Shown here: one piece after another, positions 21,981 through 54,097 of the stretch
Layout of the letters: each line of letters starts with the position of its first letter
How positions within the stretch are numbered: the first letter of the stretch is position 1
Assembly (NCBI GenBank): GCA_033720015.1
Contig: JAWWDH010000001.1
Span: forward strand, 38,097 to 102,096
Direction of reading: 5' to 3'
Source: Pseudomonas sp.
GTDB taxonomy: Bacteria; Pseudomonadota; Gammaproteobacteria; Pseudomonadales; Pseudomonadaceae
Length of the DNA: 64,000 nucleotides
Made by a program: the position numbers and the translations under genes
The notes under the pieces: generated by a model
What the model was told of the DNA's origin: nothing
What the model saw: only the letters and a program-made list of their open reading frames with translations
The model's database searches: none

Positions 21981-22010
21981 CCCCCTAACGGGAGTGTCCC
22001 CCGTCAGGGA
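21981..22010 (-). promoter_or_regulatory. GC hairpin-RBS module, copy A
   Basis: CCCTGACGGGGG-acact-CCCGTTAGGG about 35 nt upstream of ATG 21944. Confidence 0.55.
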
Positions 22011-22326
22011 TGGTTTGCGCACATGCGGAATCAACCCAATGGGTTGATTCGCCGTGGCTTATTGGTTGAGTCGGTTGAAGCACGACTAGACTTGATCAAA
22101 ACCACATAGGTGGTTTTGGGCGCCTGGCCACACACAGGTGGTTCAGGCTCTTGCTGAGTGCAACATGCACTTAGCGAAGATTCGGTGCGCTGAGGCGCGG
22201 GGGAGTGAACTGGTGAGGCTGTAGCCTCTTAGATGTGATTAACCACCACAAGTAAAGCGTGGTGCACGGTTCAATTTTCTAGGTGGAAACTGCTGCCAGT
22301 CAAGAAAATCTTGGCAAAGCCTTTTG

Positions 22327-22345
22327 CTGACCAGAATCTGGTCGA
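22327..22345 (+). promoter_or_regulatory. Transfer-regulon box upstream of the acaB-like gene
   Basis: CTGACCA-GAATC-TGGTCGA; 66 nt to ATG 22412. Confidence 0.75.
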
Positions 22346-22411
22346 ATTAGCGCAACCGAAAGCCGTTGCATTTGGTGGAATGAACATGCCACCAATCAAC
22401 GGAGATTCACC

Positions 22412-23071
22412 ATGGCCGTCAAGCCCGTAACCAGCGATGCACCCTACTCGACCGCGATCATGAAGCGGAAGATCACATTTCAGACCGAGGAAGCCAAAAG
22501 CTTCCTGGGCAACAAAATGGACAACATTGCTGTTGCCCTATTCATCCTCGACGTGATCTCTCGCAAGCGGATCGCTCGACTGAACCTCAGTACCAAAGAC
22601 CACAAGGCGGCATCCAAGGCGCTGAACAAGCTCTTTACCGACTTCGAAAAAGAAATCCAGGACGAAACCACTCGCCTGGAAGCTGTGCTGAAAGCACAGA
22701 AAATCCAGGGCCGGGCTGAGCACAACAACCCTGGAAGCTACGAGGTGGAAATTACCACCCCAGAACTGAAGCGCGCCGTTGATCTGCTGCTGGCCTTCGA
22801 CAACCTGATCGTCCTGGTCGATACCGTTTGGCTGATGGGCATCATGGAAACCGATGTCGCAAACCAGTTCCGCGCCACCAAGGCAGGCCAGATCAAGCGC
22901 CTCTTCGGTTCTGTCTACAAGCTCAGCCAGGCCGCCAAGCAGAGCGCCTTCGTTAAGGATGACGCCGATACACAGGCCGTTATTGCCCGTGAAGAGAAAA
23001 AGTTGGAACCGCAGGAAGAGCAGCCGGCGGCGGCTGAACCTCAACCTGCCGACTCCCAAGACGCGGCCTGA
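22412..23071 (+). CDS. acaB: AcaB / DUF1845-family transcriptional regulator
   Basis: KITFQTEEAK; IAVALFILDVI; VEITTP; FDNLI..VDTVWLMG. Confidence 0.7.
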   Translation: MAVKPVTSDAPYSTAIMKRKITFQTEEAKSFLGNKMDNIAVALFILDVISRKRIARLNLSTKDHKAASKALNKLFTDFEKEIQDETTRLEAVLKAQKIQGRAEHNNPGSYEVEITTPELKRAVDLLLAFDNLIVLVDTVWLMGIMETDVANQFRATKAGQIKRLFGSVYKLSQAAKQSAFVKDDADTQAVIAREEKKLEPQEEQPAAAEPQPADSQDAA

Positions 23072-23095
23072 TCAAATTTCGCAGATTAACCAACA

Positions 23096-23122
23096 TCGCC
23101 CTGCTTATGCAGGGCGAGTTGT
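23096..23122 (+). terminator. Intrinsic terminator
   Basis: TCGCCCTGC-ttat-GCAGGGCGA. Confidence 0.65.
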
Positions 23123-23271
23123 ATGGGGAAAGGAAAATGCCAACAAGCAGCGACACGATGGCTGTTCAACCTGGGAGGCCGGTACCGGCGCGTCGCCGCA
23201 ATCCCGGCCAGTCATCTTCAGAACCGGCCGACCCGCACAATAGCAACCGCCCTCTGGCCCACCTTGGAACG

Positions 23272-23463
23272 ATGAACGAAGGCAAGGATGAGGGTATGAG
23301 GGCAGGCTTTGACAGATGGGCGGAAGATTATGAGATCGAGGACGGCCCGAAGCGTGCGATTTTTTGGGATGCACAAGCCATTGTGGCAGCAAGCTTGGCC
23401 TTCGCTTTCGGGACTATCGCAGGCATTCCGCTCGGCCATTACCTCTATTCTGTCTGGTTTTGA
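23272..23463 (+). CDS. Small hypothetical membrane protein
   Basis: C-terminal TM helix; start uncertain. Confidence 0.35.
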   Translation: MNEGKDEGMRAGFDRWAEDYEIEDGPKRAIFWDAQAIVAASLAFAFGTIAGIPLGHYLYSVWF

Positions 23464-23473
23464 GCGCTCATAG

Positions 23474-23496
23474 AAAAGGGCGGGATATCCGCCCTT
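23474..23496. terminator. Terminator between convergent genes
   Basis: AAGGGCGG-gatat-CCGCCCTT. Confidence 0.7.
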
Positions 23497-23509
23497 ACCT
23501 TTATTGTTT

Positions 23510-24157
23510 CTAACTATCGCCCCTAGATCGCAGACGCTCGACATGACGCTGGGCCGCCCAGTACCCGCCTTTAACGCGCCTTCTTTTCAGCGCTGCACAG
23601 ATGTCGTCGACGTGCCGCCTGGTGAACACCGGAGCCTTGTAGCTCTGTATCTTCCGTACCACGCCCCAGATGCCATACACGCGCTCGGGGAGGCCGTAAG
23701 GAAAATCCGCATCGCCAGCCATCACCGCATAACTATGGATCTTCTGAGCATGGACGCCAGTAGCCTGCTGCACAGCCTTAACATGGGCGTAGTTCTGCAT
23801 TAGCGGGCTCTGCACCTTGTACTTGCGCCGGCCAACCAGCTGCACCCAGGTTTCAGGCTCAAGGGGGTCGACAAGCACCTTCCCCTTGAACGACTTCGTT
23901 TCAAGCACAAACAAACCAAACCTAGACACGACAATGTGGTCTACCTGGGTGCTCTCCCCCTTGGTCTTCCCACGGTAGATCGCATTGGGTAACACGCTGT
24001 ACTCGCTACTTAGGCATAGCCGCAGCATAAAGTTGACCTTGTATTCACCCCACCAGCCCCGATAGGTCGGCTTCTCCAGGAGCCTGGCGTGGATGAATCC
24101 CGCCAGGATTGCCATGCCGACTACAGGCGGCGCGTATAGAACAAAGAACTCAGTCAT
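23510..24157 (-). CDS. Membrane-anchored NERD-domain nuclease-related protein
   Basis: N-terminal TM; G..GE..V; QVDHIVVSRFGLFVLETKSFKG; SPLMQN..H. Confidence 0.85.
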   Translation of the reverse strand: MTEFFVLYAPPVVGMAILAGFIHARLLEKPTYRGWWGEYKVNFMLRLCLSSEYSVLPNAIYRGKTKGESTQVDHIVVSRFGLFVLETKSFKGKVLVDPLEPETWVQLVGRRKYKVQSPLMQNYAHVKAVQQATGVHAQKIHSYAVMAGDADFPYGLPERVYGIWGVVRKIQSYKAPVFTRRHVDDICAALKRRRVKGGYWAAQRHVERLRSRGDS

Positions 24158-24188
24158 AGCTCGCCGGCAAACCGGCCCCTCCTTCCGA

Positions 24189-25229
24189 TTAAAGTTTCGA
24201 GCAGCAGTCTGTCCAGCGCCACAGCATGTACATAGTGTCCACCTGGGTACCCGGAACATGGCGATTGGTTTTGCCGTCCCATTGGTAGGGATGCTCTCCA
24301 AGCCACATGCCTTTTTGAGTCATAGGCTTGGGCATGAACTGATTGAGCTTGTATTGGGACTTGGGAATAGTTGGGTAGAACGAGGCCCGGCAGATGTTCT
24401 CATCGCCCATGGTTCGCCGGGCAAGCCCACGACGATGCTGCTGGCTGAGTAGGCGAGCCGAAATCAGCGCTGTGGTACGGCTCATATCCGCTGCTGATGT
24501 ATGACCTGCGAGAGGGTAGATTCCGCCCCACGTTCCAGAACACCACCACAACGTCTCAAGCGGTTCCTTGCCAGCGGCAAGTAGCCCCGATTCGGCCGCG
24601 CAAGCTGCCCGGGCTATCGGATTCGCCACCGCAGCAGATTCGGGATGCTGGAAGAACGCCAGGGTGGCGTTACCCCAGGTCGGGTCAATCTCAGTGAATG
24701 AGATAATGTCCACGTCCAGATAGCCGTCCGGGTTGCACTTGGTTGGCGTATACAGGTCGAGGATCTGCAGCAGCGGAAAGGCATAGTAGTGCGTGTGATA
24801 GAACGAACCCTGATTGATCTCGTTGGAAGGCAAATGGCCCTGCTTCAGTCGACCGTATGTGCGTTTAGAGCCAAGCGGTAGCGTCACACCACCGAGAGTA
24901 GGCGAACACCCAGGCTTGCGCACATTCTCAATGATCCGGGCCGGTTCCCACATCGCAGTAACGATGCCCGGCTTATAGATGTTCGAACTCCCCTCTTGGC
25001 AAATGCAGAAGACCTTCTTCGAGGCTTTTTCGGGGGCTTTGCCAGGGGTGATCTGCACACCAGATATCCTGATCGGGAATAAGCATGCCCAACAAATATC
25101 CGTGAACAACTTCGGGCCGAAGATGCCCGAGTCTTCACACAACGGATCAGCGTATGCCCTTCCTGGAAGGGAAAGCAGCGCAGCCAGCATGATGGCCGTA
25201 GCTGCTATGAGAGCCCTATAGCGCTTCAT
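24189..25229 (-). CDS. traU: Pilus assembly protein TraU
   Basis: TDICWACLFPIRI; MWEPARIIE; FYHTHYYAFPL; EIDPTW; terminal DCC. Confidence 0.95.
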   Translation of the reverse strand: MKRYRALIAATAIMLAALLSLPGRAYADPLCEDSGIFGPKLFTDICWACLFPIRISGVQITPGKAPEKASKKVFCICQEGSSNIYKPGIVTAMWEPARIIENVRKPGCSPTLGGVTLPLGSKRTYGRLKQGHLPSNEINQGSFYHTHYYAFPLLQILDLYTPTKCNPDGYLDVDIISFTEIDPTWGNATLAFFQHPESAAVANPIARAACAAESGLLAAGKEPLETLWWCSGTWGGIYPLAGHTSAADMSRTTALISARLLSQQHRRGLARRTMGDENICRASFYPTIPKSQYKLNQFMPKPMTQKGMWLGEHPYQWDGKTNRHVPGTQVDTMYMLWRWTDCCSKL

Positions 25230-26433
25230 CTTCACCACCCACAATTTCCGATCGCGTGTATTCACGTACTGCAAACTCAAGCCCCTCGGCTGTCACTACG
25301 GACGGTGCTCTCAGAATCTGGAACCGCTGGGCCATATCCGGCGGCAGCAGGTACAGTGGGGCGTCAATGGAATCTTGGGTTGCCTCAAACAACTCCCAGC
25401 CAGAGGCGGGAGGGATTTGCGTGGCCATCACCGTGACGGTTAGCCTGGCCCCGTGGTCGGCGTATTCGCGCCTGGCCAGCTCTACCTGCCATTCTTGGGT
25501 CGGGTCGATGACGACCAGCTTCTGGTTGAAGGGCATCATTTCCAGGGGATTTATCCGCCCTGCTTTCTGCACCACTTTGCCGTGGTAGTCGAGGATATCC
25601 TGCTCGATGATGACGCCGGGGTCGACCATACGCTTGGCTGGGACGGTGACAGGGGGCAGTGGTGTGCCGGTGTGAACTGTCCAGAAGCGGTCGATTGCCC
25701 GCTCCTTCATCGCTTCCATGTCCAGGGCTTCAATTCGTTCCTTAGCGAGCTCAAGCATGTCGGGCTCGATGATGTCGCTGGTCGGGCCATGCAAACCCAA
25801 GTCGGACCCGGGTTTCGCACCTTCGGTTACTGCGTCATCGACCAGGCGGGTCGAGCTTGTGCCAGAGGCCTTGACGATGAGCTTGTCTTCTTCGTCTTCG
25901 AGCACAATGGCCGGTACTGAATCAACGGAGTGCCGGCGGAAGGCCAAGGGATCGAGGAGCACGCTCACCTGACTCTGGGTGTCCTGGGTGAGCATGTGCA
26001 TCTTGGTGATGGCGTCGACCATCTTCATACCGTCCGGAATGCCGCGGAACATGATCCCGGTTGCCGGCCTGCCATCGTAGGCGGCCATGATGTCCTTGAT
26101 GGCGGAAGCGCCCATCGACCAGGACACGAAGATCAGCGTCCGCACCCCCTCTCCGAGGGGATGCTTTTTCTCTGAATCTACTGTTGGACTGGCTTGGCCA
26201 TCATCAGGCTGCTCAATGACCGGAGTACGCGCAGTAAGCTCTTCAAGCCAGCGCATCTCTGCAGGGCCAACCTCCTTTGCCGCTCGCTGGCCCTGTTCGG
26301 ACACAGACTTGGCCTGCTCCAGTACAGAGGGGTCGATTTTTCCGATATCGAAGGGCTTGATGCCCAGGTCGTTAGCTTGAAGTGTACCGGCCAGCGCCAT
26401 GCAGACGGCCAGCGCGAGGGGTCGAATCACCAT
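25216..26433 (-). CDS. traW: TrbC-TraW fusion pilus assembly protein
   Basis: TrbC-like FVSWSM..., LDP.AF; TraW-like G....IIEPDML, GRINPL. Confidence 0.9.
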   Translation of the reverse strand: MVIRPLALAVCMALAGTLQANDLGIKPFDIGKIDPSVLEQAKSVSEQGQRAAKEVGPAEMRWLEELTARTPVIEQPDDGQASPTVDSEKKHPLGEGVRTLIFVSWSMGASAIKDIMAAYDGRPATGIMFRGIPDGMKMVDAITKMHMLTQDTQSQVSVLLDPLAFRRHSVDSVPAIVLEDEEDKLIVKASGTSSTRLVDDAVTEGAKPGSDLGLHGPTSDIIEPDMLELAKERIEALDMEAMKERAIDRFWTVHTGTPLPPVTVPAKRMVDPGVIIEQDILDYHGKVVQKAGRINPLEMMPFNQKLVVIDPTQEWQVELARREYADHGARLTVTVMATQIPPASGWELFEATQDSIDAPLYLLPPDMAQRFQILRAPSVVTAEGLEFAVREYTRSEIVGGEDEAL

Positions 26434-26999
26434 ATTGGATAGGCCTTACCGATGATTTGGGAGCGGTCTACGGAACCCCAGTACCGCGAGTCGAACGAGT
26501 CGGCGGTCTTGCCGAAGAACCAGTAACGATTGGCCTCGATAGTGCCTGCCCGAACGTAGCGATCGGGGCTGATGCCCATATCGGTTGCCACCTGCAGGCC
26601 CGTAGCTACCACCTGATCATTGATGGTCACCTGGCTCTGGGTGACGGCTACTGAATCCCCGGGCATGCCCTCCATCACCTTGACGATGGTTGTCTCATCT
26701 TCGAACACCGGGGCCAGGCCGGTGGATTTGAAGGCGAAAATATCGCCTCGAACCGGAGTGGTGTCGTGCTTATCGATGATCCAGATGCGGTACGGCGGCA
26801 GGCACAGATATTCCTGGGGCGCGATGGCAATGGAAAATCGCTGTGCCAGGCTCACAATGGCCCCAGTAAGCAGGAGCGACATGACGCCTGCCTTAACCAG
26901 GAAAGCCCCCGTAAGGGGGCCTCTGGCGCGTTCTGCCGCCACATCTGCCTGGGCCTTACGAACTGCATGCTCAGGATCGAACTTCAGCAGTCCCATCAT
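26427..26999 (-). CDS. trhF: Conjugative S26 signal peptidase
   Basis: CLPPY; RGDIFAF; VKVMEGMPGD; SFDSRYWG. Confidence 0.9.
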   Translation of the reverse strand: MMGLLKFDPEHAVRKAQADVAAERARGPLTGAFLVKAGVMSLLLTGAIVSLAQRFSIAIAPQEYLCLPPYRIWIIDKHDTTPVRGDIFAFKSTGLAPVFEDETTIVKVMEGMPGDSVAVTQSQVTINDQVVATGLQVATDMGISPDRYVRAGTIEANRYWFFGKTADSFDSRYWGSVDRSQIIGKAYPIW

Positions 27000-29470
27000 G
27001 CGGCCTCAATGCTGGTGGCATCGTAGGCAACACCGCGGTCTTTCAGTACGCGCAGGATCGCTTCGTGCTGCGGTACACCGCTGCTGGTGTAATCCTTGAT
27101 GGCCTGCACGTCCTCCGGCGCGGTCGAGTACAGCAGCTTCGCGTATTCATCCACCGTGAGCCGGGCAATACCGACGCCGCGGGGGGTCAGCATGAAGATT
27201 TCCGAGTAGTGGCCCTTGTAGGTCTTCACGGTCTTCAGGATGCGGTAGCCACCCTCGCCCAGCGGCAGACGTTTGTTTTCCTGGATGGCGTCGATGGCCT
27301 CTGCTTTCTGGCCCAGCAGCAGGGTGAAGGCCGAGTTCTCCGCAATGGCCTGGCCGACCTTGTTTTGGTACAGGTCGTTCACGCCCTGGGTAATCACAAT
27401 GGCGCTGCCGCCGTACTTACGGAAGCGGCGATAACCATGCTCGATGAACTCGCCCACGTTGCCTTGGCTCAGCAGCGACCAGGCCTCGTCGATGATCACA
27501 ATCTTCGGCCGGTCACGGTCACCCAGGTACATATCCTGCTGGATCTGGTAGATCAGCTGCAGCAGCACAACCTGCTGCAGGTGGGTACGCCCCTTCAGCT
27601 CTTCCAGCTCGAGAACCGTGAACGGGTTGCGGAAGTTCAGGTTGTTCTTGCCGTTGAAGAACCGGCCGTACTGACCCTTGGAGGTGAACGCGAAGAGCTG
27701 GTGGCCAATGTCATTGATACGGCGGTCAACGTCCAACAGCAGCGACTGCTCGATGTCGTCGACAACCATGGTTTTACCCTTCTCTTCCCAGGTCTTGGTC
27801 AGATGCTTCTTGAGGCCGGCTGTCTGGAAGTCATCCAGGGGCACGGTCGGGGCAGCCATGGCCGACAACAGACCGACCAGCACGTCTTCTTCTTCGGAGT
27901 AGTCCTCGATCAGCTCGAACGGGTTGAGGCAAATCTGGGAGTCCTGGTCGAAGCGGGCAAAATCGCCTTTATAGGCTTCACAAATCTTCAGGTAGGAAAG
28001 GCCCACGTCGATACACCAGACCTTGGCACCAATCGACAGGTAGGAAGAGATCAGGTAGTTGGTCAGGAACGATTTACCCGACCCGGACTGCGCGGCGATG
28101 GTGCCGTTGTAGTTGGTATCAGAGTCGAATAGGTGGAAGCTCATCGGCTGGCCGTTGCGCGAGATGAACGGAGCGACAGGCGTGCCAGTACCTTTCCAGT
28201 CGCCGTAGATCGGAAGAAGCGGCAGGGCCTGGGTCAGGCTCAGGGTCTTGTAGCGGAACATATCCTGGATAGAGGTCGGGTCAGCGCACATAGGCAGAGC
28301 ATTGATGAACACCGGCAGGACGACGAACTTGTCTTCCATGAAGGTGAAGCTTTGCGTGGAGAAGTGGCTTTTGGCGTTGGAAGATGCCTGGGTCAGCTCC
28401 TCCTTATTGCGGCCGAATACAACCAGGGTCATGGCCGCCTTGATGTTCGGCAAGCCCTTATCAAGGTCGGTGAAAAGCACCTCGTAAGCGTGGCGCTTCT
28501 GTACGAGCTTCGGCACGAAGGTAGCCAGCGGCCCCTGGGTCTGGTTGATCGCCCATTGGCGGTTGCGAGCCAGCTTGTCTTTCGTCTCCAGTTGCGGCGG
28601 GAAGAACATGGTCAGCGTGATCACGCAGTTGCCGCGTATCCCGCCCCGCTGAGACATGATGTCCGCAAGGTACTGCGAAGCATCACCCTGCCACATCAGG
28701 TCCGGAAACTTCTTGATGCTCATGGTCTTGAGCATGCAGTCGTCGCCAATACGGATGTGGTCGGGACGAACATGAACAGATCGCTGGAAATCAAGCACCT
28801 GCTCATTCAGAGGCTTGTCGGTTTCGGCGCGGATATAGGGATCTTCACGCCAGCTGGCCGATTCGCCCTGGTTGAGGATCGAGGTAAAAATTTCCTTGTA
28901 GGAATCGTTGGTCAGCGGGACGGGGGCAAGCCCGCAGCTATCCAGCGAGGTTTGCAGGCCATCGGCCAAGTCTTTGGCAAGGGTCGCTTCGGTATTCGTC
29001 GGCGTACTATTGGCAATGGGCATGGTCACAGAAATAACCAGGTTCTGTTCACGCACACGAACGCCTGAAATCTTGTCCACCGGTACAAGGGTACGCTCGC
29101 TGAAATACTCGGCCCGGGCCTCAGTCACTTTCTGCAGCAGTGCCAAGGTTTCGGGGCTGACATCGAACTTGCCCCGCTCTATATAGGCTTTGCGCAGGCG
29201 CGTGGAGCCGGTCTTCAATCCGTTGATGTTCTCGGTACAGATAAGCGAAAACTGAATGGTTGTGCCCTCCGGCCAATCAACAGTCAGGCCAGCTTTCAAA
29301 CGTGCGCCCTCATCGCCGGATGAGCCGGAAAGAGGCTGGCAGACGAATGCAAAGCCCAACCGATTACCCGTGAGCTGGAACAGGTGCATGTTCGGGTCGT
29401 AGGCCAGCCCATTGATCAGCTTGGAAAGGCGCGGCGTGACGCGGATCAGCGATTGCAGAAAGGACAGCAT
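26996..29470 (-). CDS. traC: VirB4-like ATPase TraC
   Basis: AAQSGSGKSF; CIDVGLSY; IIDEAWSLL; YRRFRKYGG. Confidence 0.97.
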   Translation of the reverse strand: MLSFLQSLIRVTPRLSKLINGLAYDPNMHLFQLTGNRLGFAFVCQPLSGSSGDEGARLKAGLTVDWPEGTTIQFSLICTENINGLKTGSTRLRKAYIERGKFDVSPETLALLQKVTEARAEYFSERTLVPVDKISGVRVREQNLVISVTMPIANSTPTNTEATLAKDLADGLQTSLDSCGLAPVPLTNDSYKEIFTSILNQGESASWREDPYIRAETDKPLNEQVLDFQRSVHVRPDHIRIGDDCMLKTMSIKKFPDLMWQGDASQYLADIMSQRGGIRGNCVITLTMFFPPQLETKDKLARNRQWAINQTQGPLATFVPKLVQKRHAYEVLFTDLDKGLPNIKAAMTLVVFGRNKEELTQASSNAKSHFSTQSFTFMEDKFVVLPVFINALPMCADPTSIQDMFRYKTLSLTQALPLLPIYGDWKGTGTPVAPFISRNGQPMSFHLFDSDTNYNGTIAAQSGSGKSFLTNYLISSYLSIGAKVWCIDVGLSYLKICEAYKGDFARFDQDSQICLNPFELIEDYSEEEDVLVGLLSAMAAPTVPLDDFQTAGLKKHLTKTWEEKGKTMVVDDIEQSLLLDVDRRINDIGHQLFAFTSKGQYGRFFNGKNNLNFRNPFTVLELEELKGRTHLQQVVLLQLIYQIQQDMYLGDRDRPKIVIIDEAWSLLSQGNVGEFIEHGYRRFRKYGGSAIVITQGVNDLYQNKVGQAIAENSAFTLLLGQKAEAIDAIQENKRLPLGEGGYRILKTVKTYKGHYSEIFMLTPRGVGIARLTVDEYAKLLYSTAPEDVQAIKDYTSSGVPQHEAILRVLKDRGVAYDATSIEAA

Positions 29471-29481
29471 GTAGATCTCCC

Positions 29482-30183
29482 TTATTGAGCCCGGTTGTTC
29501 TCGATCCAGGCTCGAAGGCCTTCGGTCGGCTTCCCTTCACGGATCAGACCGTCATCACGAACGAGGAAAGGGACGTTGCGTGCCCCAATGAATTGCGCGG
29601 TAAGGCGGCGCTTTCCGATCACGTCGACTTCGCAGGCACCTTTCGGCTTTTGGGCAAGTGGTGCATCCAGATCACCCTTCACTGCAGCCTGCCAAGCAGC
29701 GGCCTGGTCTTGAGCGCAGTGCAATTCTTTGGTGCGAGAAGCGCTTCGCTCAGAGAGGAGAGGCAACATCAGGACATCAAGGCGGTAACCCTCAGGAAGT
29801 GAGCTTCGCGCTTCGGCCATGATTTCTTTGCAGAACTTGCAGGCGGGGTCGGAGAACATCGTAATGGCCTTATCACCGTTGCCGATGCTCAGAGGGGCCA
29901 GGTCTTTAAAGCCCATCTTGGCCTTGTCGATTGGGATGTAGTTCGCGGCGAATCGTGCCTCTTCCAGGGTCTGGAGTTCCTTTTGGCTCCAGGTGTCATA
30001 GACCTTGCCCTGAATGATGAAACGTCCGTTGTCACTGATGACTGCGAACTTGCCGTTCTTCTCGATGGCCAGCATTCCGGATACCGGGAGCATGACCACG
30101 TTGTCCTGGTTCTTGAGGGGCGACGCACTGGCGGCCGTTGCCAGGGTCAGGGCAGCTGTGGTGGTGATCAACGCGCGGATCAT
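29482..30183 (-). CDS. dsbC: Disulfide isomerase DsbC-like protein
   Basis: Signal peptide; GRFIIQGKVYD; FSDPACKFC. Confidence 0.85.
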   Translation of the reverse strand: MIRALITTTAALTLATAASASPLKNQDNVVMLPVSGMLAIEKNGKFAVISDNGRFIIQGKVYDTWSQKELQTLEEARFAANYIPIDKAKMGFKDLAPLSIGNGDKAITMFSDPACKFCKEIMAEARSSLPEGYRLDVLMLPLLSERSASRTKELHCAQDQAAAWQAAVKGDLDAPLAQKPKGACEVDVIGKRRLTAQFIGARNVPFLVRDDGLIREGKPTEGLRAWIENNRAQ

Positions 30184-30247
30184 GGGCAAGCCTCTGATTG
30201 AAGTTGCCAATAGGATAGGGAGAGGAGAAACAGAAAGGCCTCTTAAT

Positions 30248-30266
30248 CTGACAACAATCTGGTCAG
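30248..30266 (-). promoter_or_regulatory. Transfer-regulon box upstream of dsbC-traC, embedded in the traA terminator hairpin
   Basis: CTGACAA-CAATC-TGGTCAG inside AGGCCTCTTA...AAGAGGCCT; -10-like TATCCT 31-36 nt downstream. Confidence 0.75.
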
Positions 30267-30302
30267 ATAAGAGGCCTTTGGGAGGGGCGTGAAACCCGGG
30301 GA

Positions 30303-30647: not shown

Positions 30648-30730
30648 GGGGTAAAGCTCCTTTAGATATACGCAGGGCCTGCGCTCGTCATGCATTTTTC
30701 CAAAGGAGGGGTGGCTAATTGGGCGGTTAT

Positions 30731-30749: not shown

Positions 30750-30760
30750 GTTTAGAAATA

Positions 30761-46728: not shown

Positions 46729-46731
46729 CGC

Positions 46732-49158
46732 TTACTCCTGACCTTCAACGCGGAAGTAGTACTTTTTGTCACGACCGACTTTTATGCCTTCGAGGCAATA
46801 GAAAATGGCGGTTTCAACTGCTTCAAAGTCGACACCCATGACTTCCATGGTTTTGTGGAGCTTTCCAAAGCTGATCGAGTAGATGCCCTCGCCTTTGGCC
46901 GGCTCTGCGATAGCGACACCGCGGAGGGCTTCGGCGATAGGTGCGGAAGTGGCTCTAAGCTCAGGAGACAGGGTTTCGCTACAGGCCGGCTGCCACTGCG
47001 CCTTGGTCAGCCGGCAATAAATCAGGGACAACTTCTTGCTCGCCAGGAAACCCGTGACATGCCGGAGCGTGCGAGTGCGCTCATCTTCAGCATTTGAAAA
47101 ATCGCGCCAGAGCCAGCCGGAAGCCTCTAATTCCGGAAGGTCAACCTCGGAAATGCCGCCGACCAAGGGGATAAACGCCTTGTTGCGCACCGCGCGAATC
47201 TGACTGTTGGTGGCGAATTCGTTGAGCAAGCGACTAGCCAGGTCAGTGTTCACGCTCAGGAATTCAATCTCCTCTTGCTTGAGCTTGCCCTTGAACTTCT
47301 CGGGAATATCGAGAGCCGATGCCTGAACAGCCTTAGCTGTAGCGGCCGGCTTAGGTTGCTCTTTTTTCTGCTTGACTGGCTTTTTCAGCGTGATGTCGTC
47401 GACCTGCAGCTTGAACCCCTTCTGCGCGAACTCGGCAAGGGTGTCGTCCTCGGTTTCATCGACTGCTGTCGCTGGCTCGCTCTCTGCAACCGTAGCGGGC
47501 TCGGTAGCTTCAGCTTTGACCTCAGGGGTTCCACCGTTCAGATCCATCAGCATGTTAGTCAGGGTGTCATCGTCCATGTTGGCCAGGTCGATATTCTGAT
47601 CATCCGCCTCTTCCGTCTCAGCAGGCTCACTCGGTAGTGCCGGTCCGTTAGCGACCAACTTGATACCGGCGGCGCGGGCGGCTAAGTCTGGCGCCAGCGA
47701 AACCCCTCTGCGCTCAACTGCAGGGGCAGGCCCCTGGCGATTATCTTTCTTCGGCTTCTCTGGGCCGCCTGCTTGGTTCTGAGCAAGTGCAAACAGATCG
47801 TTCTGCCCGGACTTTTGGCCTTCCTTCGCCACCACGGCGCGGATCTTCTCGTCTTCCTCGGTCAGGTAATCCTTGGCCTGCTCATCCCGGCCAATGGTTA
47901 CCGAAACCGCGGAAACGGAACCGAGCACCGAGGGGAAAACGCCGTCTGGGTTTTTCAGTTTGACGCAGCGGATAGCTGGCCCTTTCCCGTTCTTTTGCAG
48001 GGCATGGGGCGCGACAAACCAGACGGAGGTGCCATCGGGGGCTTTCTCAATCAACTCGCGCTCGGTCATGGCGGCGAGCAGGCTGATCTCACCCCGCGGG
48101 AAGCCGCCTACCTTGTCTTTGACCACCTGCTGGATGATGTCGTCTGAACCGGTATTCCAGACCAGGAACAGGCCCTGCGTGCTCTTCCAGAGTCGAGAGC
48201 CAGGGGTATTGAACGTCCACTTACCCTCATCGAGCAGGGCGCGCATGGCATCGACGCACAGGCGCTGAATTGGAACGCCGGTGGTGGCCTCCCCTTCGCT
48301 GCTACCGGAACGCTCGCGGTCAGCCTTAACAGAGCGGCTATCCGCAATCTTCACAGCTTTGGTCAGAGGGCCAGGCTCGTCATTGGTGGCATCGAGAAGG
48401 GCCTGCCAAATATCCTCACCGCCATCAAAAAGCCACTCACGGATCTTGGTAGTTACAAATGTGCCAATGAGAACAGATGTGTGGGCAAGGTGCTTGTCTT
48501 CCCTGTTCTTAACCCAGGTAAGGAAATATCTGGTGATGTTGTTGGCAACTGCCCACTCGTGGATGGTCTTGGTGCCCATGTTCCACTTCTGGCTCCCATC
48601 GAAGGACATGACCCGAACATCGGTCAGGGGCTTACCGGAGTCGTGGAACAGTGCCGCGATGATCCCCGCGACATACCAGCGCCGCAGTCGCTTACTGGCC
48701 TGGCCAGGGGTCAACTCGTGGTCGAACTTGGTCATCACCATCCAGTCGAGCATGAAGCACGCTGTTTCCAGGCCATGCCGCAACAGGCCGCCTGGTGTGT
48801 TGTGGTGATGGTGCTCGGACGCCGGCAGCAGATGCACAAGCTCTGCATAGGCGATGATGATGGGCTCAAGGTAGTGCTCAAACTCATGCGGAGAGAGGCC
48901 GGACTGAATTTCGAGCTTATCCATCAGCTTGCCCTGGAACTTACGCATGCAGAACTCGCCCGAGATCAGGCCGTAGTAGCCATCGTGGTAGGGAGGGTTG
49001 CGCAGGTAGGTCGGGTCACCGAGGGCACGCAACAACTCCTCGGGAATGTTCTTGTACGCAGGGTGCTCGAACCTTGGATCAACCAGCGGCGCAAGTAGCT
49101 TGCTGCGCGTAGGCTTGCGCGACGGGAACAGAGCCTTCAGGGCTGCGAAAAATGGCAT
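46732..49158 (-). CDS. traI: MOBH (HD-domain) relaxase TraI
   Basis: LLPASEHHHH..PGGLLRHGLE; ALFHDSGK..TD; ADSRSV. Confidence 0.95.
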   Translation of the reverse strand: MPFFAALKALFPSRKPTRSKLLAPLVDPRFEHPAYKNIPEELLRALGDPTYLRNPPYHDGYYGLISGEFCMRKFQGKLMDKLEIQSGLSPHEFEHYLEPIIIAYAELVHLLPASEHHHHNTPGGLLRHGLETACFMLDWMVMTKFDHELTPGQASKRLRRWYVAGIIAALFHDSGKPLTDVRVMSFDGSQKWNMGTKTIHEWAVANNITRYFLTWVKNREDKHLAHTSVLIGTFVTTKIREWLFDGGEDIWQALLDATNDEPGPLTKAVKIADSRSVKADRERSGSSEGEATTGVPIQRLCVDAMRALLDEGKWTFNTPGSRLWKSTQGLFLVWNTGSDDIIQQVVKDKVGGFPRGEISLLAAMTERELIEKAPDGTSVWFVAPHALQKNGKGPAIRCVKLKNPDGVFPSVLGSVSAVSVTIGRDEQAKDYLTEEDEKIRAVVAKEGQKSGQNDLFALAQNQAGGPEKPKKDNRQGPAPAVERRGVSLAPDLAARAAGIKLVANGPALPSEPAETEEADDQNIDLANMDDDTLTNMLMDLNGGTPEVKAEATEPATVAESEPATAVDETEDDTLAEFAQKGFKLQVDDITLKKPVKQKKEQPKPAATAKAVQASALDIPEKFKGKLKQEEIEFLSVNTDLASRLLNEFATNSQIRAVRNKAFIPLVGGISEVDLPELEASGWLWRDFSNAEDERTRTLRHVTGFLASKKLSLIYCRLTKAQWQPACSETLSPELRATSAPIAEALRGVAIAEPAKGEGIYSISFGKLHKTMEVMGVDFEAVETAIFYCLEGIKVGRDKKYYFRVEGQE

Positions 49159-49222
49159 GTGATGTATCCACCAGTTAAGTGGGCACATGATCCCGAAAGC
49201 AGCTCGCCTTAGGTTCTCTAAA

Positions 49223-49241
49223 CCGACCAGATTTTGGTAAT
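49223..49241 (-). promoter_or_regulatory. Transfer-regulon box upstream of traI
   Basis: CCGACCA-GATTT-TGGTAAT; -10-like GATCAT 31-36 nt downstream; 64 nt to ATG. Confidence 0.8.
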
Positions 49242-49267
49242 AAAAAAACCCGGCCAGAGGCCGGGTT
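49242..49267 (-). terminator. Intrinsic terminator after exo
   Basis: AACCCGGCC-tct-GGCCGGGTT followed by a T-run. Confidence 0.85.
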
Positions 49268-49271
49268 GGGG

Positions 49272-50306
49272 TCAGAAGGTGAAAACGCCTGCTACAAGCA
49301 GTGTGTGCGAGTCCACCTGGCCATCAGCTTGCCGAGGGGTCGGCATTACTTCTGGCTGGTAATTGCTGAAATCGAACTCCGTGTTCACGGAAACCCGTGT
49401 AGCGGTGTGCGAGTCAGCACGGTGTTGCTCGATCACGTCAGCTGGAATCTGTGGGTCGAGGCTTTCAGCCACGCCCTTCCAGTTCACCCGACCTTCAACA
49501 TCGTACCGACTGATGCGAATCCCAAACGCATCAGCGCGTTTGAAATCACCCATCAACTCAAGTAGGCGATCGTCCATTTCTTTGGCGTCCGCCTGTATCT
49601 TGACCAGCAGTTTCTTAGCCTCCGCAATTTTTTGCTCTGTGTCGCGACGCGCTGCAGCAATGATTCGCCAACGATCCAGATCCAACATGCTGTGTGGGAT
49701 GAAATCGCGCTCAGGATCGGCTTCCGGCGGCGTAGCCGTGGTTACCAGATTCCAGAACGCAGCTTCAGCTTTGATGATCCTCTTAACCAGCAGGTCATCA
49801 CGCTCTACCACTAGGCAGATCGGTTCATGCTTGGGTGACCAGCACCAGAGGTATCCCCGTTGCGCGCCACTGACAATCAGCTGATGCGTCAGCTGCCAGC
49901 GGTACAGCAGGTATGCCTTGGACTTGTCACGATTGGTTAGCACATCCAGGTGGTTGTCATCGGAGAGGTTTTTAATCTCCACCGGCGAGCCATCTGCAAT
50001 CACGCCATCGAACGAAGCCCGAATGAACGGATGTTCGGTGGACTCTGCGCAGAATGGCAGGCCAACCTGACCGTACTTATCCTCGAACGCCTGCAGGGCC
50101 AGAGGCTCGAACTTAACCCCACGCCGAACCTGGGGAATGCACCCCAAGTCAGGTGGCGTGTCGATGCCAACCAACTCCCGCCACAGCTCCAGAGGCGTCT
50201 TGTCCGGGTTTTCACCCATGATGATCGCGCAACTGGTTGCGCTCACACCTTCACGACGCCACTGATGCCACTCAGGTGAACGCTGGGCGATATCAACGAC
50301 TTTCAT
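49272..50306 (-). CDS. exo: YqaJ/lambda-Exo family 5'-3' exonuclease
   Basis: QRSPEWHQWRREGVSAT; RASFDG; VEIKN; QLTHQL. Confidence 0.92.
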   Translation of the reverse strand: MKVVDIAQRSPEWHQWRREGVSATSCAIIMGENPDKTPLELWRELVGIDTPPDLGCIPQVRRGVKFEPLALQAFEDKYGQVGLPFCAESTEHPFIRASFDGVIADGSPVEIKNLSDDNHLDVLTNRDKSKAYLLYRWQLTHQLIVSGAQRGYLWCWSPKHEPICLVVERDDLLVKRIIKAEAAFWNLVTTATPPEADPERDFIPHSMLDLDRWRIIAAARRDTEQKIAEAKKLLVKIQADAKEMDDRLLELMGDFKRADAFGIRISRYDVEGRVNWKGVAESLDPQIPADVIEQHRADSHTATRVSVNTEFDFSNYQPEVMPTPRQADGQVDSHTLLVAGVFTF

Positions 50307-50901
50307 CGCCGACCTCCTCAGCGAACCCCAACCGCACAATGTCACCATATTTCTGCGCCGGCCCTTTCAACTCACGGATCTGCGCGCAGAGCTTCAAATC
50401 GGCAAACATTTGAGTCCGCTTCAGACCAGAGGCCTTGTAAAAGCCCTTGCCGAAGTTGCTTCCTTCTTCGCGCACACAGACGTAGCCGATACCATCGAGC
50501 TCAACCTTGCGGCGCTGGTCAGCCTTAGCCAGTAAGCCTTGAACACGCTCATCGAACGCGCCAACAGCTTCCCGGTAGGCCTTCCCTGTTTCGTAACCCA
50601 GAGAGTGAAGCCCATTGCAAAGAGCTTCGAAGCGCGCCTTGAGCAGGGTTTCAGTCTTTGCATGGAATACCTTGAGCTGCTCAGCGTACTGATCACCCCA
50701 GGCAACAAGCTCAGCCTTTTCAGCATCGCCAATCCCTTCCAGGAGTGGGCTTTCTGGCCAGTAGGTCAGATCACTGTAGGCGCTGAACTTTTCCAGGTGC
50801 TTCTTGCTGCGAATATCAACGGCCATTTCAGCCCCCTGGTGTTCGCAGATTGCTTCACATGCAGCGTGGTAAGCCACGCAGGCGTCAGCGAAAGTTTTCA
50901 T
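50293..50901 (-). CDS. Hypothetical protein
   Basis: AGGAG RBS; overlaps the exo start. Confidence 0.7.
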   Translation of the reverse strand: MKTFADACVAYHAACEAICEHQGAEMAVDIRSKKHLEKFSAYSDLTYWPESPLLEGIGDAEKAELVAWGDQYAEQLKVFHAKTETLLKARFEALCNGLHSLGYETGKAYREAVGAFDERVQGLLAKADQRRKVELDGIGYVCVREEGSNFGKGFYKASGLKRTQMFADLKLCAQIRELKGPAQKYGDIVRLGFAEEVGDESR

Positions 50902-50970
50902 CTCTATTCTCCTTTCTGGTTAGTTCACCACCCAGGCCAAAACACCCAAGGCGGAACCCAGAAAGGGCAA

Positions 50971-51002
50971 ATCCCCAGAGGGGGTATTGCCCCCCTGGGG
51001 AT
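50971..51002 (-). promoter_or_regulatory. GC hairpin-RBS module, copy B
   Basis: ATCCCCAG(A)GGGGG-tattg-CCCCCCTGGGGAT on the plus strand. Confidence 0.55.
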
Positions 51003-51021
51003 TGGTTTTCCAGTTACTTTC

Positions 51022-51285
51022 TCAACTGGATATACCCTTGCGCACAAGGCTCAGGGCTTCGATTTTGTCTGCTCCAAGCATCTCGTCTCTCTTATCGATG
51101 CCTGGAGCTATTTTTGCCACCTTGAACAGGCGGCAGGTTTCAGCAGTGACTGCCCAATGCTCATCGCCGTGCCTGCTGAGTAGCTGGCTGAACAGCCTGG
51201 CCCCGCAAATTTGCGGGGTCTGACCGAACACAGCGATACAGCGATTGAGCGATCGCCCGTACTTCAAGATCGCCATGTAGCTCAC
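51022..51285 (-). CDS. Hypothetical protein
   Basis: 87 aa; 4-nt overlap with the upstream gene. Confidence 0.55.
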   Translation of the reverse strand: MSYMAILKYGRSLNRCIAVFGQTPQICGARLFSQLLSRHGDEHWAVTAETCRLFKVAKIAPGIDKRDEMLGADKIEALSLVRKGISS

Positions 51286-51815
51286 GCGACCTCCTGGTAC
51301 TGCTGCTTGATTTCATCAGCGCGGCGGTTAGCCTCCTCCCAGCTCATCTGCCCAGCATTGCAAGCCTGGATGATTGCTGTGATTTGGCTGCCACGCTGCC
51401 AGTCACGAGTGACGCACAGACGGTCGAGCGCCCCCTGATCGAGGACGGTGTATCCATCGTCAAGCATGTCCCCCAAGCAAAGCTCAGGGGTGTCATGCGT
51501 GCAGTGCCCGGTGAACCCGTCCCGCTGGAATTGTGTCCAACGGTATCGGCCCGGCCCTGATGCATCCTCTGTGAGAACGCCCCAGGCATCACGGTCTTGG
51601 TGTTTAAGCGTCAGGCCAAGCCCGTGCGCAGCGAACAGACCGAACAGCAATTCCAGGGAGGAAATTTTCCCCTGAATCCAGCTGATCAGCTCATCCGCCA
51701 AACAGGCAAAGCCTTCTCCCGTTTCTTTCGCAGCCAGCCAATCGGCAAGCGACTCACGCAGCGACTCAAGCGTTGAAGGAACCATGTCGCCCTCCTTCAC
51801 TCTTGTCGGCTGCAA
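51282..51815 (-). CDS. Conserved plasmid hypothetical protein
   Basis: 177-aa ORF; start may be ATG 51785. Confidence 0.65.
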   Translation of the reverse strand: MQPTRVKEGDMVPSTLESLRESLADWLAAKETGEGFACLADELISWIQGKISSLELLFGLFAAHGLGLTLKHQDRDAWGVLTEDASGPGRYRWTQFQRDGFTGHCTHDTPELCLGDMLDDGYTVLDQGALDRLCVTRDWQRGSQITAIIQACNAGQMSWEEANRRADEIKQQYQEVA

Positions 51816-51948
51816 GACCCGGGAACCCGTTCAACTCCTTCTGTGCCATCTGGACAGCTTGATTGAAGCTGTAAGCCTGACACTGGTACCGGGTGTATTC
51901 CTTGGTCTGTTTGTTAAACATCGCCAGGATGTAAGTACGCATTTTCAT
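51766..51948 (-). CDS. Small hypothetical protein
   Basis: AGGAG RBS downstream of hairpin C. Confidence 0.55.
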   Translation of the reverse strand: MKMRTYILAMFNKQTKEYTRYQCQAYSFNQAVQMAQKELNGFPGLAADKSEGGRHGSFNA

Positions 51949-51978
51949 TTCTCCTTCTCATCCCTGAAACGGAGCTAT

Positions 51979-52004
51979 CCCCTGTGGGGAAATGCCCCAC
52001 AGGG
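51979..52004 (-). promoter_or_regulatory. GC hairpin-RBS module, copy C
   Basis: CCCTGTGGGG-aaatg-CCCCACAGGG perfect stem. Confidence 0.6.
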
Positions 52005-52025
52005 TTGTTTGTTTGAGCTGAAGCC

Positions 52026-52070
52026 TTACGGCAGCAGCAGAGTCAGGATCAGGACGATGATGTCGGCCAT
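52026..52070 (-). CDS. Putative 14-aa hydrophobic peptide MADIIVLILTLLLP
   Basis: GAGG RBS; located between hairpins D and C. Confidence 0.35.
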   Translation of the reverse strand: MADIIVLILTLLLP

Positions 52071-52080
52071 TTCGCTATCC

Positions 52081-52323
52081 TCATTGATTGCCAACAGCTG
52101 CCCTATGCAGGGGTAGCCCCGGCATAGGGTTGGTTGGATGCTCGGGGTTGTCCCATACAGCAAGACATTCCGAGCAGATTTTATTTCTGTAGATGCGGTT
52201 CTCAAGCAACTTGACGTTGGGGTGAGAGACATCTTCACCCCTGTCAAACACCCTGGATCGCGATTGGCCGCAGAACGTCGCGCCGGCCATGAAACCATTG
52301 ATCGACAGGTGCGCCATGATCAC
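52081..52323 (-). CDS. Small hypothetical protein
   Basis: 4-nt overlap with the bet stop; CSEC motif. Confidence 0.45.
   Translation of the reverse strand: MIMAHLSINGFMAGATFCGQSRSRVFDRGEDVSHPNVKLLENRIYRNKICSECLAVWDNPEHPTNPMPGLPLHRAAVGNQ
52101..52129 (-). promoter_or_regulatory. GC hairpin-RBS module, copy D
   Basis: CCCTATGC(A)GGGG-tag-CCCC(G)GCATAGGG. Confidence 0.5.
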
Positions 52324-53462
52324 TCCCCATTCGCTGCAGCTTCGTACTGAGCGGCACGCAACAAACGCAGAGCGTAGTCACGAGCTTCTACAGGCCAAGC
52401 AGAGACGTATTCGATGGCGGCTTGCCAGCCACCGGATGCACGCGCACGCTTGAGCACCTCCTGGGCTTTGGCGATCACCTTGGGCGGAAGATCCGCTTCA
52501 GTGGTCGCTTGAGCGTGGGTAGGTGCAGGTTGTTCAGCAGCTTCCGCTTGTGCCTGGACAGGCTCAGCGTTTTCCACCAACTCGCCATTGATCGGCTCCG
52601 GTTCAGCTTCAGTTGCAGGGTCTGCCGCAGCTTGTGTCCCGGCCTGGTTAGAGGTCGGCAGCGGCTGGGATTCGTCCACAACTTCAGCAGCACCCATGTA
52701 GCGCTCAACCACGGAAGCAGGCACATCGTGAGAGGCAAAGCCTTCGCCTGCAGCTGTGTTGAGGTACTGGATAACCGTGTCGAGCTTTTCACCGACCTGG
52801 GGCCAGTATTTTTTGGCGATCTTGATGCCGGACTTCTTGCGCATGGAATCTTCGAAGTCGAGCCAAGGGCCTTTCTTCTTCCGTTTCCACAGCTCGCTGG
52901 CATCACGCGCCTTGTAGATTTCGGCAGCCGTAACCGCCTCCACATGAACGCGACCATCCGGCAGCGTGACTTCGACGTAGACACCGCGGAATTCACCGCG
53001 CTGCTCCTTCAGATCGAAGGGGTCGAACTCATGAACAGGGCTGTGACGCTTGCCTTTGTACTGGAACGTGTCCAGCGAGTAGACCAGCTCCACGATGCAA
53101 TCCCTGATCGCGCCATCGTTCACGGCAGTCTTGATCATGCCCTTGTAGGACACATCCAAGATCACCTGCCCCTCGCGAGGCACCAGGTAACACAGACCCC
53201 GGGCGGGGTTCAGTGTCAGGCCGCAAGCGGCAACCTGGGAGAACGCATTTCGAAGGCTCAGCGGGTTGTTGATTGCAGTGGTACACAGGTAATCGTTATT
53301 CATCATCGCTTGAGATGCATAAAGCATCTCTTGCTTGAATACGACATCCGTGTTGGCCGCTTTAACCAACTCCATGAACTTCATTTCCTGCTTAGCAATA
53401 ATTGCCACGGCGTTTTGGAATTTTTCACTCATCTTAATTATCCCTTCAAAGAAAAAGCGCAC
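52320..53462 (-). CDS. bet: RecT/Bet single-strand annealing protein
   Basis: FKQEMLYASQ; QVAACGLTLNPARGLCYLVPR; DVSYKGMI; M..KS.IK.A.KYWP; true start probably ATG near 53432. Confidence 0.9.
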   Translation of the reverse strand: MRFFFEGIIKMSEKFQNAVAIIAKQEMKFMELVKAANTDVVFKQEMLYASQAMMNNDYLCTTAINNPLSLRNAFSQVAACGLTLNPARGLCYLVPREGQVILDVSYKGMIKTAVNDGAIRDCIVELVYSLDTFQYKGKRHSPVHEFDPFDLKEQRGEFRGVYVEVTLPDGRVHVEAVTAAEIYKARDASELWKRKKKGPWLDFEDSMRKKSGIKIAKKYWPQVGEKLDTVIQYLNTAAGEGFASHDVPASVVERYMGAAEVVDESQPLPTSNQAGTQAAADPATEAEPEPINGELVENAEPVQAQAEAAEQPAPTHAQATTEADLPPKVIAKAQEVLKRARASGGWQAAIEYVSAWPVEARDYALRLLRAAQYEAAANGE

Positions 53463-53539
53463 CCTGGGGCGCGCTTTTATTTGCTACCTAGTTGCAGTTA
53501 GTTCAGAAAACAATGCCTGTTAGGAATTGTTATTCCTCG

Positions 53540-54022
53540 CTAAAAGGGGATGTCGTCATCGAAGCTATCGTAATTCTGCGCGGGGGCCGGAGCCGAAGCC
53601 TGTTGACGATTATTTTGCTGCTGGGGACGCTGCTGGTTTTGTCCTTGCGGACGATTGTTACCAGAACCGCCATCCTGCTGCTTACCGCCGAGCAACTGCA
53701 TCGTGCCGTTGATATCAACCACGATTTCCGTGGTGTAGCGCTTGATACCATCCTTTTCCCACTCACGAGTTTGAAGTTTGCCTTCGATATAAACTTGCGA
53801 GCCCTTTTTGAGGTACTCACCAGCAATCTCAGCAACTTTCCCGAAGAGGGATACACGGTGCCACTCGGTTTTTTCTTTTTTCTCACCAGATTGTTTGTCA
53901 GTCCAAGCTTCACTGGTTGCGAGAGACAGGTTGGTTACCGCATTGCCGTTGGGCATATAACGGACTTCCGGATCTTGTCCGCAAGTACCAACCAGGATCA
54001 CTTTGTTTACGCCACGAGCCAT
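53540..54022 (-). CDS. ssb: Single-stranded DNA-binding protein
   Basis: [12 protein letters not shown]...DPEVRY; C-terminal FDDDIPF. Confidence 0.97.
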
Positions 54023-54058
54023 ATCAATTCTCCATTCGAAGATAATACGGGGCGACGT

Positions 54059-54097
54059 AAACCCCGGTCGGGGAATAGCGTAGCCCCGAGTGGGTTT
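54059..54097 (-). promoter_or_regulatory. GC hairpin-RBS module, copy E, upstream of ssb
   Basis: AAACCCACTCGGGG-ctacgctatt-CCCCGACCGGGGTTT. Confidence 0.55.

Follow-up and report, generated by a model that had tools for sequence, protein, structure and literature searches.

What do GC-rich hairpins do when they recur ahead of gene after gene in an operon? The question is raised by a 64,000-nucleotide stretch of Pseudomonas sp. DNA (assembly GCA_033720015.1, contig JAWWDH010000001.1, positions 38,097 to 102,096; hereafter, the window), which lies on contig C1 of a fragmented 3.97 Mb assembly and carries the ssb, bet and exo genes of a MOBH/MPF-F element. An initial annotation of five hairpins in the window had proposed mRNA processing or stabilization, promoters active on single-stranded DNA (ssDNA), antisense termination and cassette junctions as possible roles. 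Our analysis indicates that the hairpins are probably a family of serial translational attenuators on the mRNAs of establishment genes. On the sense mRNA, each GC hairpin (P1) would open a leader made of two hairpins, of which the second (P2) would keep the ribosome-binding site (RBS) closed at equilibrium, so that each copy attenuates translation. The genes served would be ssb, bet, the small genes ahead of exo and a small-gene/primase operon, together with a MoxR-ATPase/DUF3150/VWA cluster on contig C2, each operon bearing one attenuator in front of nearly every gene.

Two-hairpin leaders at ribosome-binding sites

The five hairpins were all confirmed. They lie on the minus strand, which serves as the sense strand for every gene between traG (14.5 kb) and ssb (54.0 kb). 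They consist of a CCC-n(3-5)-GGGG 5' arm, a loop of 3-10 nt and a CCCC-n(3-5)-GGG 3' arm, and their folding energies in the window range from -13 to -21 kcal/mol. The 5' flank is A/C-rich and G-poor at each site, a Shine-Dalgarno (SD) sequence (GGAG or GAGG) lies 30-72 nt past the hairpin and 7-8 nt ahead of an ATG, and four of the five hairpins fall within the ssb to exo stretch. Hairpin B is not intergenic and sits in the final codons of an 80-aa open reading frame (ORF). Scanning the minus strand of the window with a regular expression plus folding returned 5 matches, compared to 1.0 +/- 1.1 in 100 dinucleotide shuffles; taken alone, this excess is modest. Many P1 copies open with CCCTGA, CCCTAA or CCCTAG.

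The hairpin had been described as a lone unit, overlooking the structure attached to it. A pyrimidine arm (approximately nUUCUCC) begins 0-3 nt after P1 and pairs with the SD of the next gene (GGAGAA), forming P2. Among 23 copies folded from the window, C2 and the IncP-7 plasmid pCAR1 (two further copies, c2_0 and pC_7, were added later), the minimum free energy (MFE) fold is P1 plus P2 in nearly all cases, and the SD is enclosed by P2 or by a small hairpin. The exceptions are the ssb-leader copies w_A and pC_A, which fold into a form resembling the alternative pairing described below, and the weak B-type copies w_B and pC_B. Within the window, the P2 of module E closes the SD of a 202-aa gene (ATG 50899-50901, minus strand), and the P2 of module D was also examined in an orthologous alignment.

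The bases around the GGAG core vary among copies, and they do so in step with the anti-SD arm. The anti-SD and SD arms read, respectively, GAAGUUCCCC and GGAGAACUUC in c2_2, CACCUCUUUGU and ACAAAGAGGUG in c2_7, and UUACUCCUUUUC and GAGAAAGGAGAUAA in pC_4. We assessed this pairing by permutation in Python, as whole-module MAFFT alignments (A1, A5) were not structure-consistent enough for pair counts. Cognate anti-SD/SD duplexes in the element under study are more stable than non-cognate ones (-12.6 compared to -8.4 kcal/mol, p<2e-4), with p=6e-4 in pCAR1 and p=2e-4 in IncC, and the effect holds within one subfamily. Furthermore, compensatory P2 substitutions distinguish this element from its close relative pWTJH2, which also has copies of the module.

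Distribution, covariation and strand polarity

The modules are restricted to a few operons, are conserved from IncP-7-like to IncC elements, and show covariation and sense polarity in their paired structures. Pfam identifies RecT/Bet, a MOBH relaxase (TraI_2), TraD and a full F-type transfer set in the window, whose gene order is syntenic with the IncP-7 plasmids pDK1 and pCAR1; the cluster running from ssb to exo and an AAA-ATPase gene is homologous to that of IncC. The traN gene (PF06986, E=4.9e-36) lies on C2 (L009 13797-16451, equivalent to G000:C2:49796-52450) beside a MoxR/DUF3150/VWA operon, as in pCAR1. C2 is therefore part of the same element as C1, and the lack of traN in the window reflects an assembly break instead of a loss. 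We compared loci from Stutzerimonas (L003) and Aquipseudomonas (L004 and L005), pDK1, pCAR1 (L007), pWTJH2, C2 (L009) and the IncC plasmid pNDM-KN (L013); a class-wide genome search with Bet yielded three distant matches only, and plasmid records were used for breadth instead.

Within the 3.97 Mb assembly, family copies are confined to the five sites on C1 and to C2, and about 25 other regular-expression matches are coding or generic hairpins. Seven C2 copies were found by the combined scan and an eighth, c2_0, by a covariance model, with two further unanalyzed candidates; these copies stand before the MoxR-type ATPase, DUF3150, VWA and small genes. The plasmids pDK1 and pCAR1 carry 11 copies in 25 kb and 13 in 26 kb, respectively, all of them sense-oriented and each ahead of a gene. 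Hairpins occupy orthologous positions in L003, L004 and L005, and at the orthologous sites of L003-L007 they are kept with compensatory changes. The covariance model, built on six copies, matches all related loci searched (L003-L005, L007, L009, L012 and L013) and has no match in the remaining 38 kb of C1. In the folded leaders of pNDM-KN, P1 and a subsequent anti-SD:SD hairpin stand ahead of ssb, bet, exo, the AAA-ATPase gene, DUF3150, VWA and several small genes. Overall, an element bears at least 13 copies, ahead of almost every cistron in two or three operons. The Rfam search suggested with the initial annotation identified no known RNA family, as Rfam 15 gave no match at gathering score in the window, L007, L009 or L013.

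Absence of covariation across homologues had been named beforehand as evidence against a functional element. P1 does covary strongly, with a score of 0.416 compared to 0.102 in shuffles (0/500). In the covariance-model alignment of 80 matches, 94.2% of cells are paired and 8 of the 10 pairs change on both sides; the four central pairs occur in all Watson-Crick types, and the outer CCC:GGG and inner GGG:CCC pairs are nearly invariant in identity and polarity. The 50 distinct P1 sequences contain 41 G·U pairs in the sense orientation, compared to 5 A·C mismatches, which would be wobble pairs on the other strand. All three helices (P1, P2 and the alternative pairing) are more stable on the sense strand, and at non-seed copies the covariance model scores the sense strand 5-13 bits above the antisense strand. 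These sequence patterns point to a structure that belongs to the sense mRNA and not to the antisense strand. Furthermore, G·T pairing is weak in DNA, and the sense-strand G·U pairs therefore argue against a role on single-stranded DNA.

The genes behind the leaders encode SSB, Bet/Exo, a MoxR-type ATPase cluster and many small proteins, with homologues in IncP-7 and related Pseudomonas plasmids. If almost every cistron is attenuated in this manner, the protein output of the whole establishment programme would be set post-transcriptionally. As a compact RNA motif, the module can be tested and mutated in plasmids such as pCAR1 (P. putida KT2440), and it could aid in annotating small genes of such regions.

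Table 1. Coordinates of the modules and neighbouring features in the window.
Feature	Position	Strand	Remarks
Module A P1 (ssb leader)	54063-54094	-	Orthologues in L004, L005, pDK1 and pCAR1
Module A P2 (weak)	54020-54049	-	ssb SD GGAG 54030-54033; ATG 54020-54022; RNAfold -7.2 kcal/mol
Module B P1	52101-52129	-	Within last 16 codons of conserved 80-aa Cys-rich ORF
Module B P2 (weak)	52074-52098	-	Covers SD GAGG 52079-52082
Module D P1 (perfect 10-bp stem)	51980-52004	-	Seed of covariance model R1; 47.4 bits
Module D P2, CUCC..GGAG	51951-51974	-	SD 51951-51954; ATG of MRTYILAMFNK gene 51940-51942; -9.9 kcal/mol
Module E P1	50974-50999	-	Orthologues in L003, L004, L005, pDK1 and pCAR1
Module E P2 (long), CCUUUCUGG..CCAGAAAGG	50906-50972	-	Encloses inner hairpin; SD 50909-50912; -27.8 kcal/mol
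Module F P1	21983-22009	-	Ahead of 108-aa / 195-aa / primase operon preceding traF-traH-traG
Module F P2, UUUCUCCGU..ACGGAGAAA	21949-21981	-	SD 21953-21956; ATG 21942-21944; -18.0 kcal/mol
Mini-ORF behind module B (14 codons, hydrophobic), MADIIVLILTLLLP	52026-52070	-	Peptide conserved
SSB gene	53540-54022	-	PF00436, E=9e-38
YqaJ/Exo gene	49272-50348	-	Pfam
Terminator-like hairpin between ssb and bet, AAAGCGCGCC-CCAG-GGUGCGCUUUUU	53455-53481	-	A-tract/GC-stem/U-run; outside P1 family

The 80-aa Cys-rich ORF that contains the P1 of module B (…KICSECLAVWDNPE…; 52081-52323, minus strand) begins at the stop codon of bet. Protein alignment with L003-L005 gives 46-68% identity, and no matching coding sequence is listed in the pCAR1 or pDK1 gene tables examined. 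The TGA of this ORF (52081-52083) overlaps the SD of the following mini-ORF, whose peptide is preserved through synonymous and conservative changes in L003, L004, pDK1 and pCAR1, with the variants MADLIVFILTLLLP, MAEIIINLIMLFFN and MADLIVLILTLLF in IncP-7-like elements. Judging from this layout, the upstream ribosome at site B would run through the module, which is ordinary translational coupling. A sigma-70-like site (TTGAGA-16-TAAAAT, 10/12) lies within the same ORF (52178-52205, minus strand), about 50 nt upstream of hairpin B. In the case of bet, the start supported by homology is ATG 53429-53431 (minus strand), and the ORF call from GTG 53462 is overlong.

Two observations concern the vicinity of module F. 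A six-codon upstream ORF (ATG TGC GCA AAC CAT CCC TGA; 22006-22026, minus strand), with no visible SD, stops inside the 5' arm of hairpin F. Just upstream of the module, a perfect 10-bp palindrome (GAATCAACCC-AAT-GGGTTGATTC, 22028-22050) is a possible candidate operator for the operon behind it.

Predicted alternative pairing of the anti-Shine-Dalgarno arm

Copy-by-copy complementarity also exists between the anti-SD arm (segment R3) and the 5' arm plus loop of its own P1 (segment R1). The two segments read GGGGGAACUU (R1) and AAGUUCCCCC (R3) in c2_2, where the SD arm competing for R3 is again GGAGAACUUC, GGGGGAAUC and GAUUCCCCC in pC_3, and GGAGUAAC and GUUACUCC in pC_4. Cognate R1:R3 duplexes are more stable than non-cognate ones in the element under study (-12.6 compared to -9.2 kcal/mol, p<2e-4), in pCAR1 (-14.3 compared to -9.8 kcal/mol, p<2e-4) and in IncC (-11.1 compared to -8.3 kcal/mol, p=0.002). 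For R2:R4, used as a control pairing, cognate duplexes have no advantage in the element (p=0.41) or in pCAR1 (p=0.65), and the result is borderline in IncC (p=0.049).

The resulting hairpin, designated Alt, leaves the SD free. G·U pairs make up 37 of its 229 pairs (16%), because a U in R3 faces G when bound to R1 and A when bound to the SD arm. Alt also frees the P1 3' arm to fold on itself (CCCC..GGGG), which would explain the odd, invariant polarity of P1. According to model energies, the stability of Alt by itself is similar to that of P1 in many copies, and in the predicted MFE fold of module A the P1 5' arm pairs with a downstream GCCCCG segment in an Alt-like manner. In folds of the growing chain at the point where R3 has emerged and the SD has not, Alt is the MFE structure in 16 of 25 modules, compared to 40 of 200 non-cognate chimeras (Fisher p=1.2e-5). 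Direct-path estimates place the barrier from P1 to Alt at 11-23 kcal/mol and that from Alt to P1 plus P2 mostly at 13-22 kcal/mol (2.6 kcal/mol for w_A, which keeps Alt in its final fold). Taken at face value, model barriers of such height would make either state persist, and a catalyst would be required for passing from one to the other.

The covariation of both anti-SD pairings in three lineages (IncP-7-like, pCAR1 and IncC) and these energy calculations raise the possibility, which we hold tentatively, that each module is a two-state RNA switch instead of a fixed brake. In the OFF state, P1 and P2 would be formed and the SD paired. In the ON state, the P1 5' arm and loop, acting as a mimic of the SD arm, would capture the anti-SD, the P1 3' arm would fold on itself and the SD would be free; P1 may be the control half of the module. 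Candidate signals for switching would be the first ribosome, a helicase or chaperone, or the rate of synthesis in a fresh transconjugant. If this were the case, a single signal could control translation of the whole establishment programme through a dozen switches in series. The three-way complementarity may instead have arisen neutrally, by template switching within quasi-palindromes, but its persistence across the IncP-7-like and IncC lineages argues for selection.

Two ideas on the control of the leaders were tried and rejected. CsrA/RsmA as a partner was discarded on the grounds that no csrA is present on C1, that the sole match in the assembly is on C8, and that the GGA of the SD lies in a stem and not in a loop; in pCAR1, a csrA gene lies between traN and ssb (L007 12608-12781, pCAR1 114107-114280). 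A ribosome relay, in which the base of P1 would be opened by a ribosome terminating on the preceding gene, requires a stop codon within about 9 nt. The gaps between stop codon and P1 span 3-56 nt in pCAR1 and 6-33 nt in the element under study, and as most are 13-33 nt the relay was rejected as a general trigger and retained for site B only.

Competing explanations and known systems

Several points weigh against serial attenuation as the role of the hairpins. Sites A and B have a weak P2 (-7 kcal/mol), the leader of bet in the window differs from a P1/P2 module, and sequestration of the SD does not by itself account for the need for a P1 that is stable and invariant in its CCC/GGG polarity. 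The identity with the attenuator tested in SXT is drawn from a review sentence and the IncC bet leader. Furthermore, AT-rich MOBH plasmids of Proteus and Providencia (pG32-177 and pM2-1) lack a P2 and present, at the same positions, an AU-rich motif together with a canonical hairpin-plus-U-run, and these true terminators suggest that the ancestral role of the hairpin may be transcriptional. From these sequences, it appears that the presence of a hairpin ahead of each cistron is the older trait, and the anti-SD arm may have evolved from a U-tract. In Providencia pM2-1 (L019 8400-16300), the motif UUUUAAAUCUAUUAAA lies between a hairpin-plus-U-run and the SD, just ahead of the latter, in five or more small genes.

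The terminators of these relatives are in line with an explanation in which P1 sets the fate of the mRNA, as a 3' exonuclease barrier, a 5' cap-like hairpin following cleavage in the A/C flank or a weak sense terminator producing graded expression along the operon, and P2 is an ordinary RBS structure. P1 is indeed very stable (-13 to -30 kcal/mol) and often lengthened by A-rich/U-rich flanks, and comparison with mapped transcripts (PMC2642839) shows that the ssb-recT unit of pCAR1 ends at about 119180, at hairpin B, which begins at 119172. We nonetheless consider this explanation unlikely, as it accounts neither for the copy-specific complementarity of R1 and the anti-SD arm nor for the invariant CCC..GGGG / CCCC..GGG polarity. 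The sense tails, stated initially to lack U-tracts, fail a simple terminator rule at all five window sites. In addition, tiling arrays and primer extension define pCAR1 ORF100-109 as a single 7.8 kb transcription unit starting 141 nt before ORF100 (PMC2642839); the first module lies inside its mapped 5' untranslated region and at least eight copies are read through, which suggests that P1 is neither a promoter nor an efficient sense terminator. A simple Rho-independent terminator was rejected on both strands, as the U-tract rule failed at every family site in sense and was passed only by module D in antisense. The earlier suggestion of a processing or stabilizing structure was right in placing the hairpins at the level of the sense mRNA; it did not propose that an attached second hairpin sequesters the SD.

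Termination of antisense transcription, or bidirectional termination or insulation shielding the operons from convergent transcripts, has a slim chance of being the main role. The T-rich antisense tails in the initial annotation are T/G-rich at the window sites, and the plus strand at site D passes the terminator rule, but the other four sites fail it. The antisense ncRNA2 of pCAR1 (119470 to 119330) does stop just short of the degenerate hairpin C. Both the excess of G·U pairs over A·C mismatches and the higher covariance-model scores favour the sense strand, however, and this explanation offers no reason for a terminator ahead of each RBS at a fixed distance. An action on the transferred DNA strand, through Frpo-type ssDNA promoters or priming signals in the recipient, would suit genes that act early in the recipient (hde), ssb being a classic leading-region gene, and an element that encodes a primase. 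It is nevertheless highly implausible, given that the stems span just 10-12 bp, that a consensus scan found no -35/-10-like hexamers in the hairpins, unlike the long imperfect hairpin of Frpo, whose stem forms them, and that wobble pairs, weak in DNA, are frequent in Alt. Moreover, the module is tied to an SD and ATG and not to a transcription start, and the first pCAR1 copy lies downstream of a mapped start of the double-stranded DNA type.

In L003, L004 and pDK1, modules C and D are separated by a 209-aa gene. This gene is precisely missing from the window, where the sequence at 51935-52075 (minus strand) has a C-type flank up to the ACCCTG on the P1 5' edge and a D-type module thereafter; L005 holds a different gene in the same slot. 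The modules thus behave as cassette boundaries, and the initial proposal of cassette junctions is borne out to this extent. One IncC P1 and its flank are duplicated ahead of two genes, and the IncC Bet/Exo anneals intergenic repeats down to 7 bp, some of them palindromic (PMC7498323). That the repeats are chiefly recombination sites, at which the Bet/Exo of the element would delete or swap cassettes or repair breaks, is still very unlikely. The identity common to the copies is limited to CCC/GGGG/CCCC/GGG, selection preserves pairing and not sequence identity, and P2, the fixed orientation and the distance to start codons would go unexplained. Recombination probably follows from the presence of the repeats and is less likely to be the reason for them.

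Serial attenuation, which we favour, has a precedent in a related element. As summarized in PMC4542580, Garriss, Poulin-Laprade and Burrus (2013) described in SXT a translational attenuator upstream of bet, with high transcription but hindered translation, and the summary states the same for IncA/C. Like the modules in the window, it is found in the ssb-bet-exo cluster of a MOBH/MPF-F element, but a single position is described there, as opposed to the 13 or more copies that form the family in each element here, and it sits at bet, which lacks a module in the window; the likeness is drawn from the review description and the IncC leaders. Since the IncC leaders, said to share this attenuator, present P1 and the anti-SD:SD hairpin, the window hairpins would belong to the same attenuator type. 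In IncC, the hde operon (AAA ATPase, ssb, bet, exo) serves evasion of host defence (Roy et al. 2020, PMC7498323), a designation that also covers the IncC counterpart of the MoxR-ATPase/DUF3150/VWA cluster on C2. In IncC and SXT/R391 elements, genes of this type aid survival of restriction and CRISPR on entry into a new host (PMC7498323). For vcrx089, the same work mentions a structure predicted to sequester the RBS (PMC7498323), and the homologous AAA-ATPase genes on C2 (L009 6626-7582) and pNDM-KN (L013 9878) have a module. That structure was a side remark on one gene, with no mention of a family, a role for P1 or an alternative pairing. By analogy with the SXT attenuator and the vcrx089 structure, we infer that the modules lower translation.

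Other systems share parts of the arrangement. PeSL of T4-type phages are mobile regulatory cassettes that carry an early promoter, whereas the modules described here would gate an RBS and contain no promoter-like hexamers. Both PeSL and the IncC repeats rptI-IV (PMC7498323) resemble the modules as stem-loop units bordering small variable genes, with gain and loss of genes at the repeats; in IncC, Bet/Exo mends breaks by annealing such short intergenic, partly palindromic repeats (PMC7498323). Rho-independent terminators also combine a GC-rich hairpin with flanks that are often A-rich on the 5' side and pyrimidine-rich on the 3' side, but the modules lack a qualifying sense U-tract and are transcribed through in the pCAR1 operon.

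The metastable hairpins of hok mRNA and the kinetic trap created by delayed folding in the MS2 maturation gene are instances of dynamic mRNA folding with coupled covariations. The likeness lies in one segment, here the anti-SD, with two mutually exclusive, covarying partners and an SD that is free in one state only, and in folds of the nascent chain, predicted in our case, that differ from the final fold. It is a likeness of logic and not of homology: the devices described here span 60-100 nt and are modular and repeated many times per operon, with two conformers predicted by energy models. If functional, their three-way complementarity would represent a rare natural instance of a short, modular and repeated bistable RBS switch. 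We found no text describing these attenuators as a repeated family, and one such brake was already known in a related element, while the family and its possible built-in switch seem undescribed. The new point is the pairing of the anti-SD arm with the 5' arm and loop of P1, which is copy-specific in three lineages (p<=0.002).

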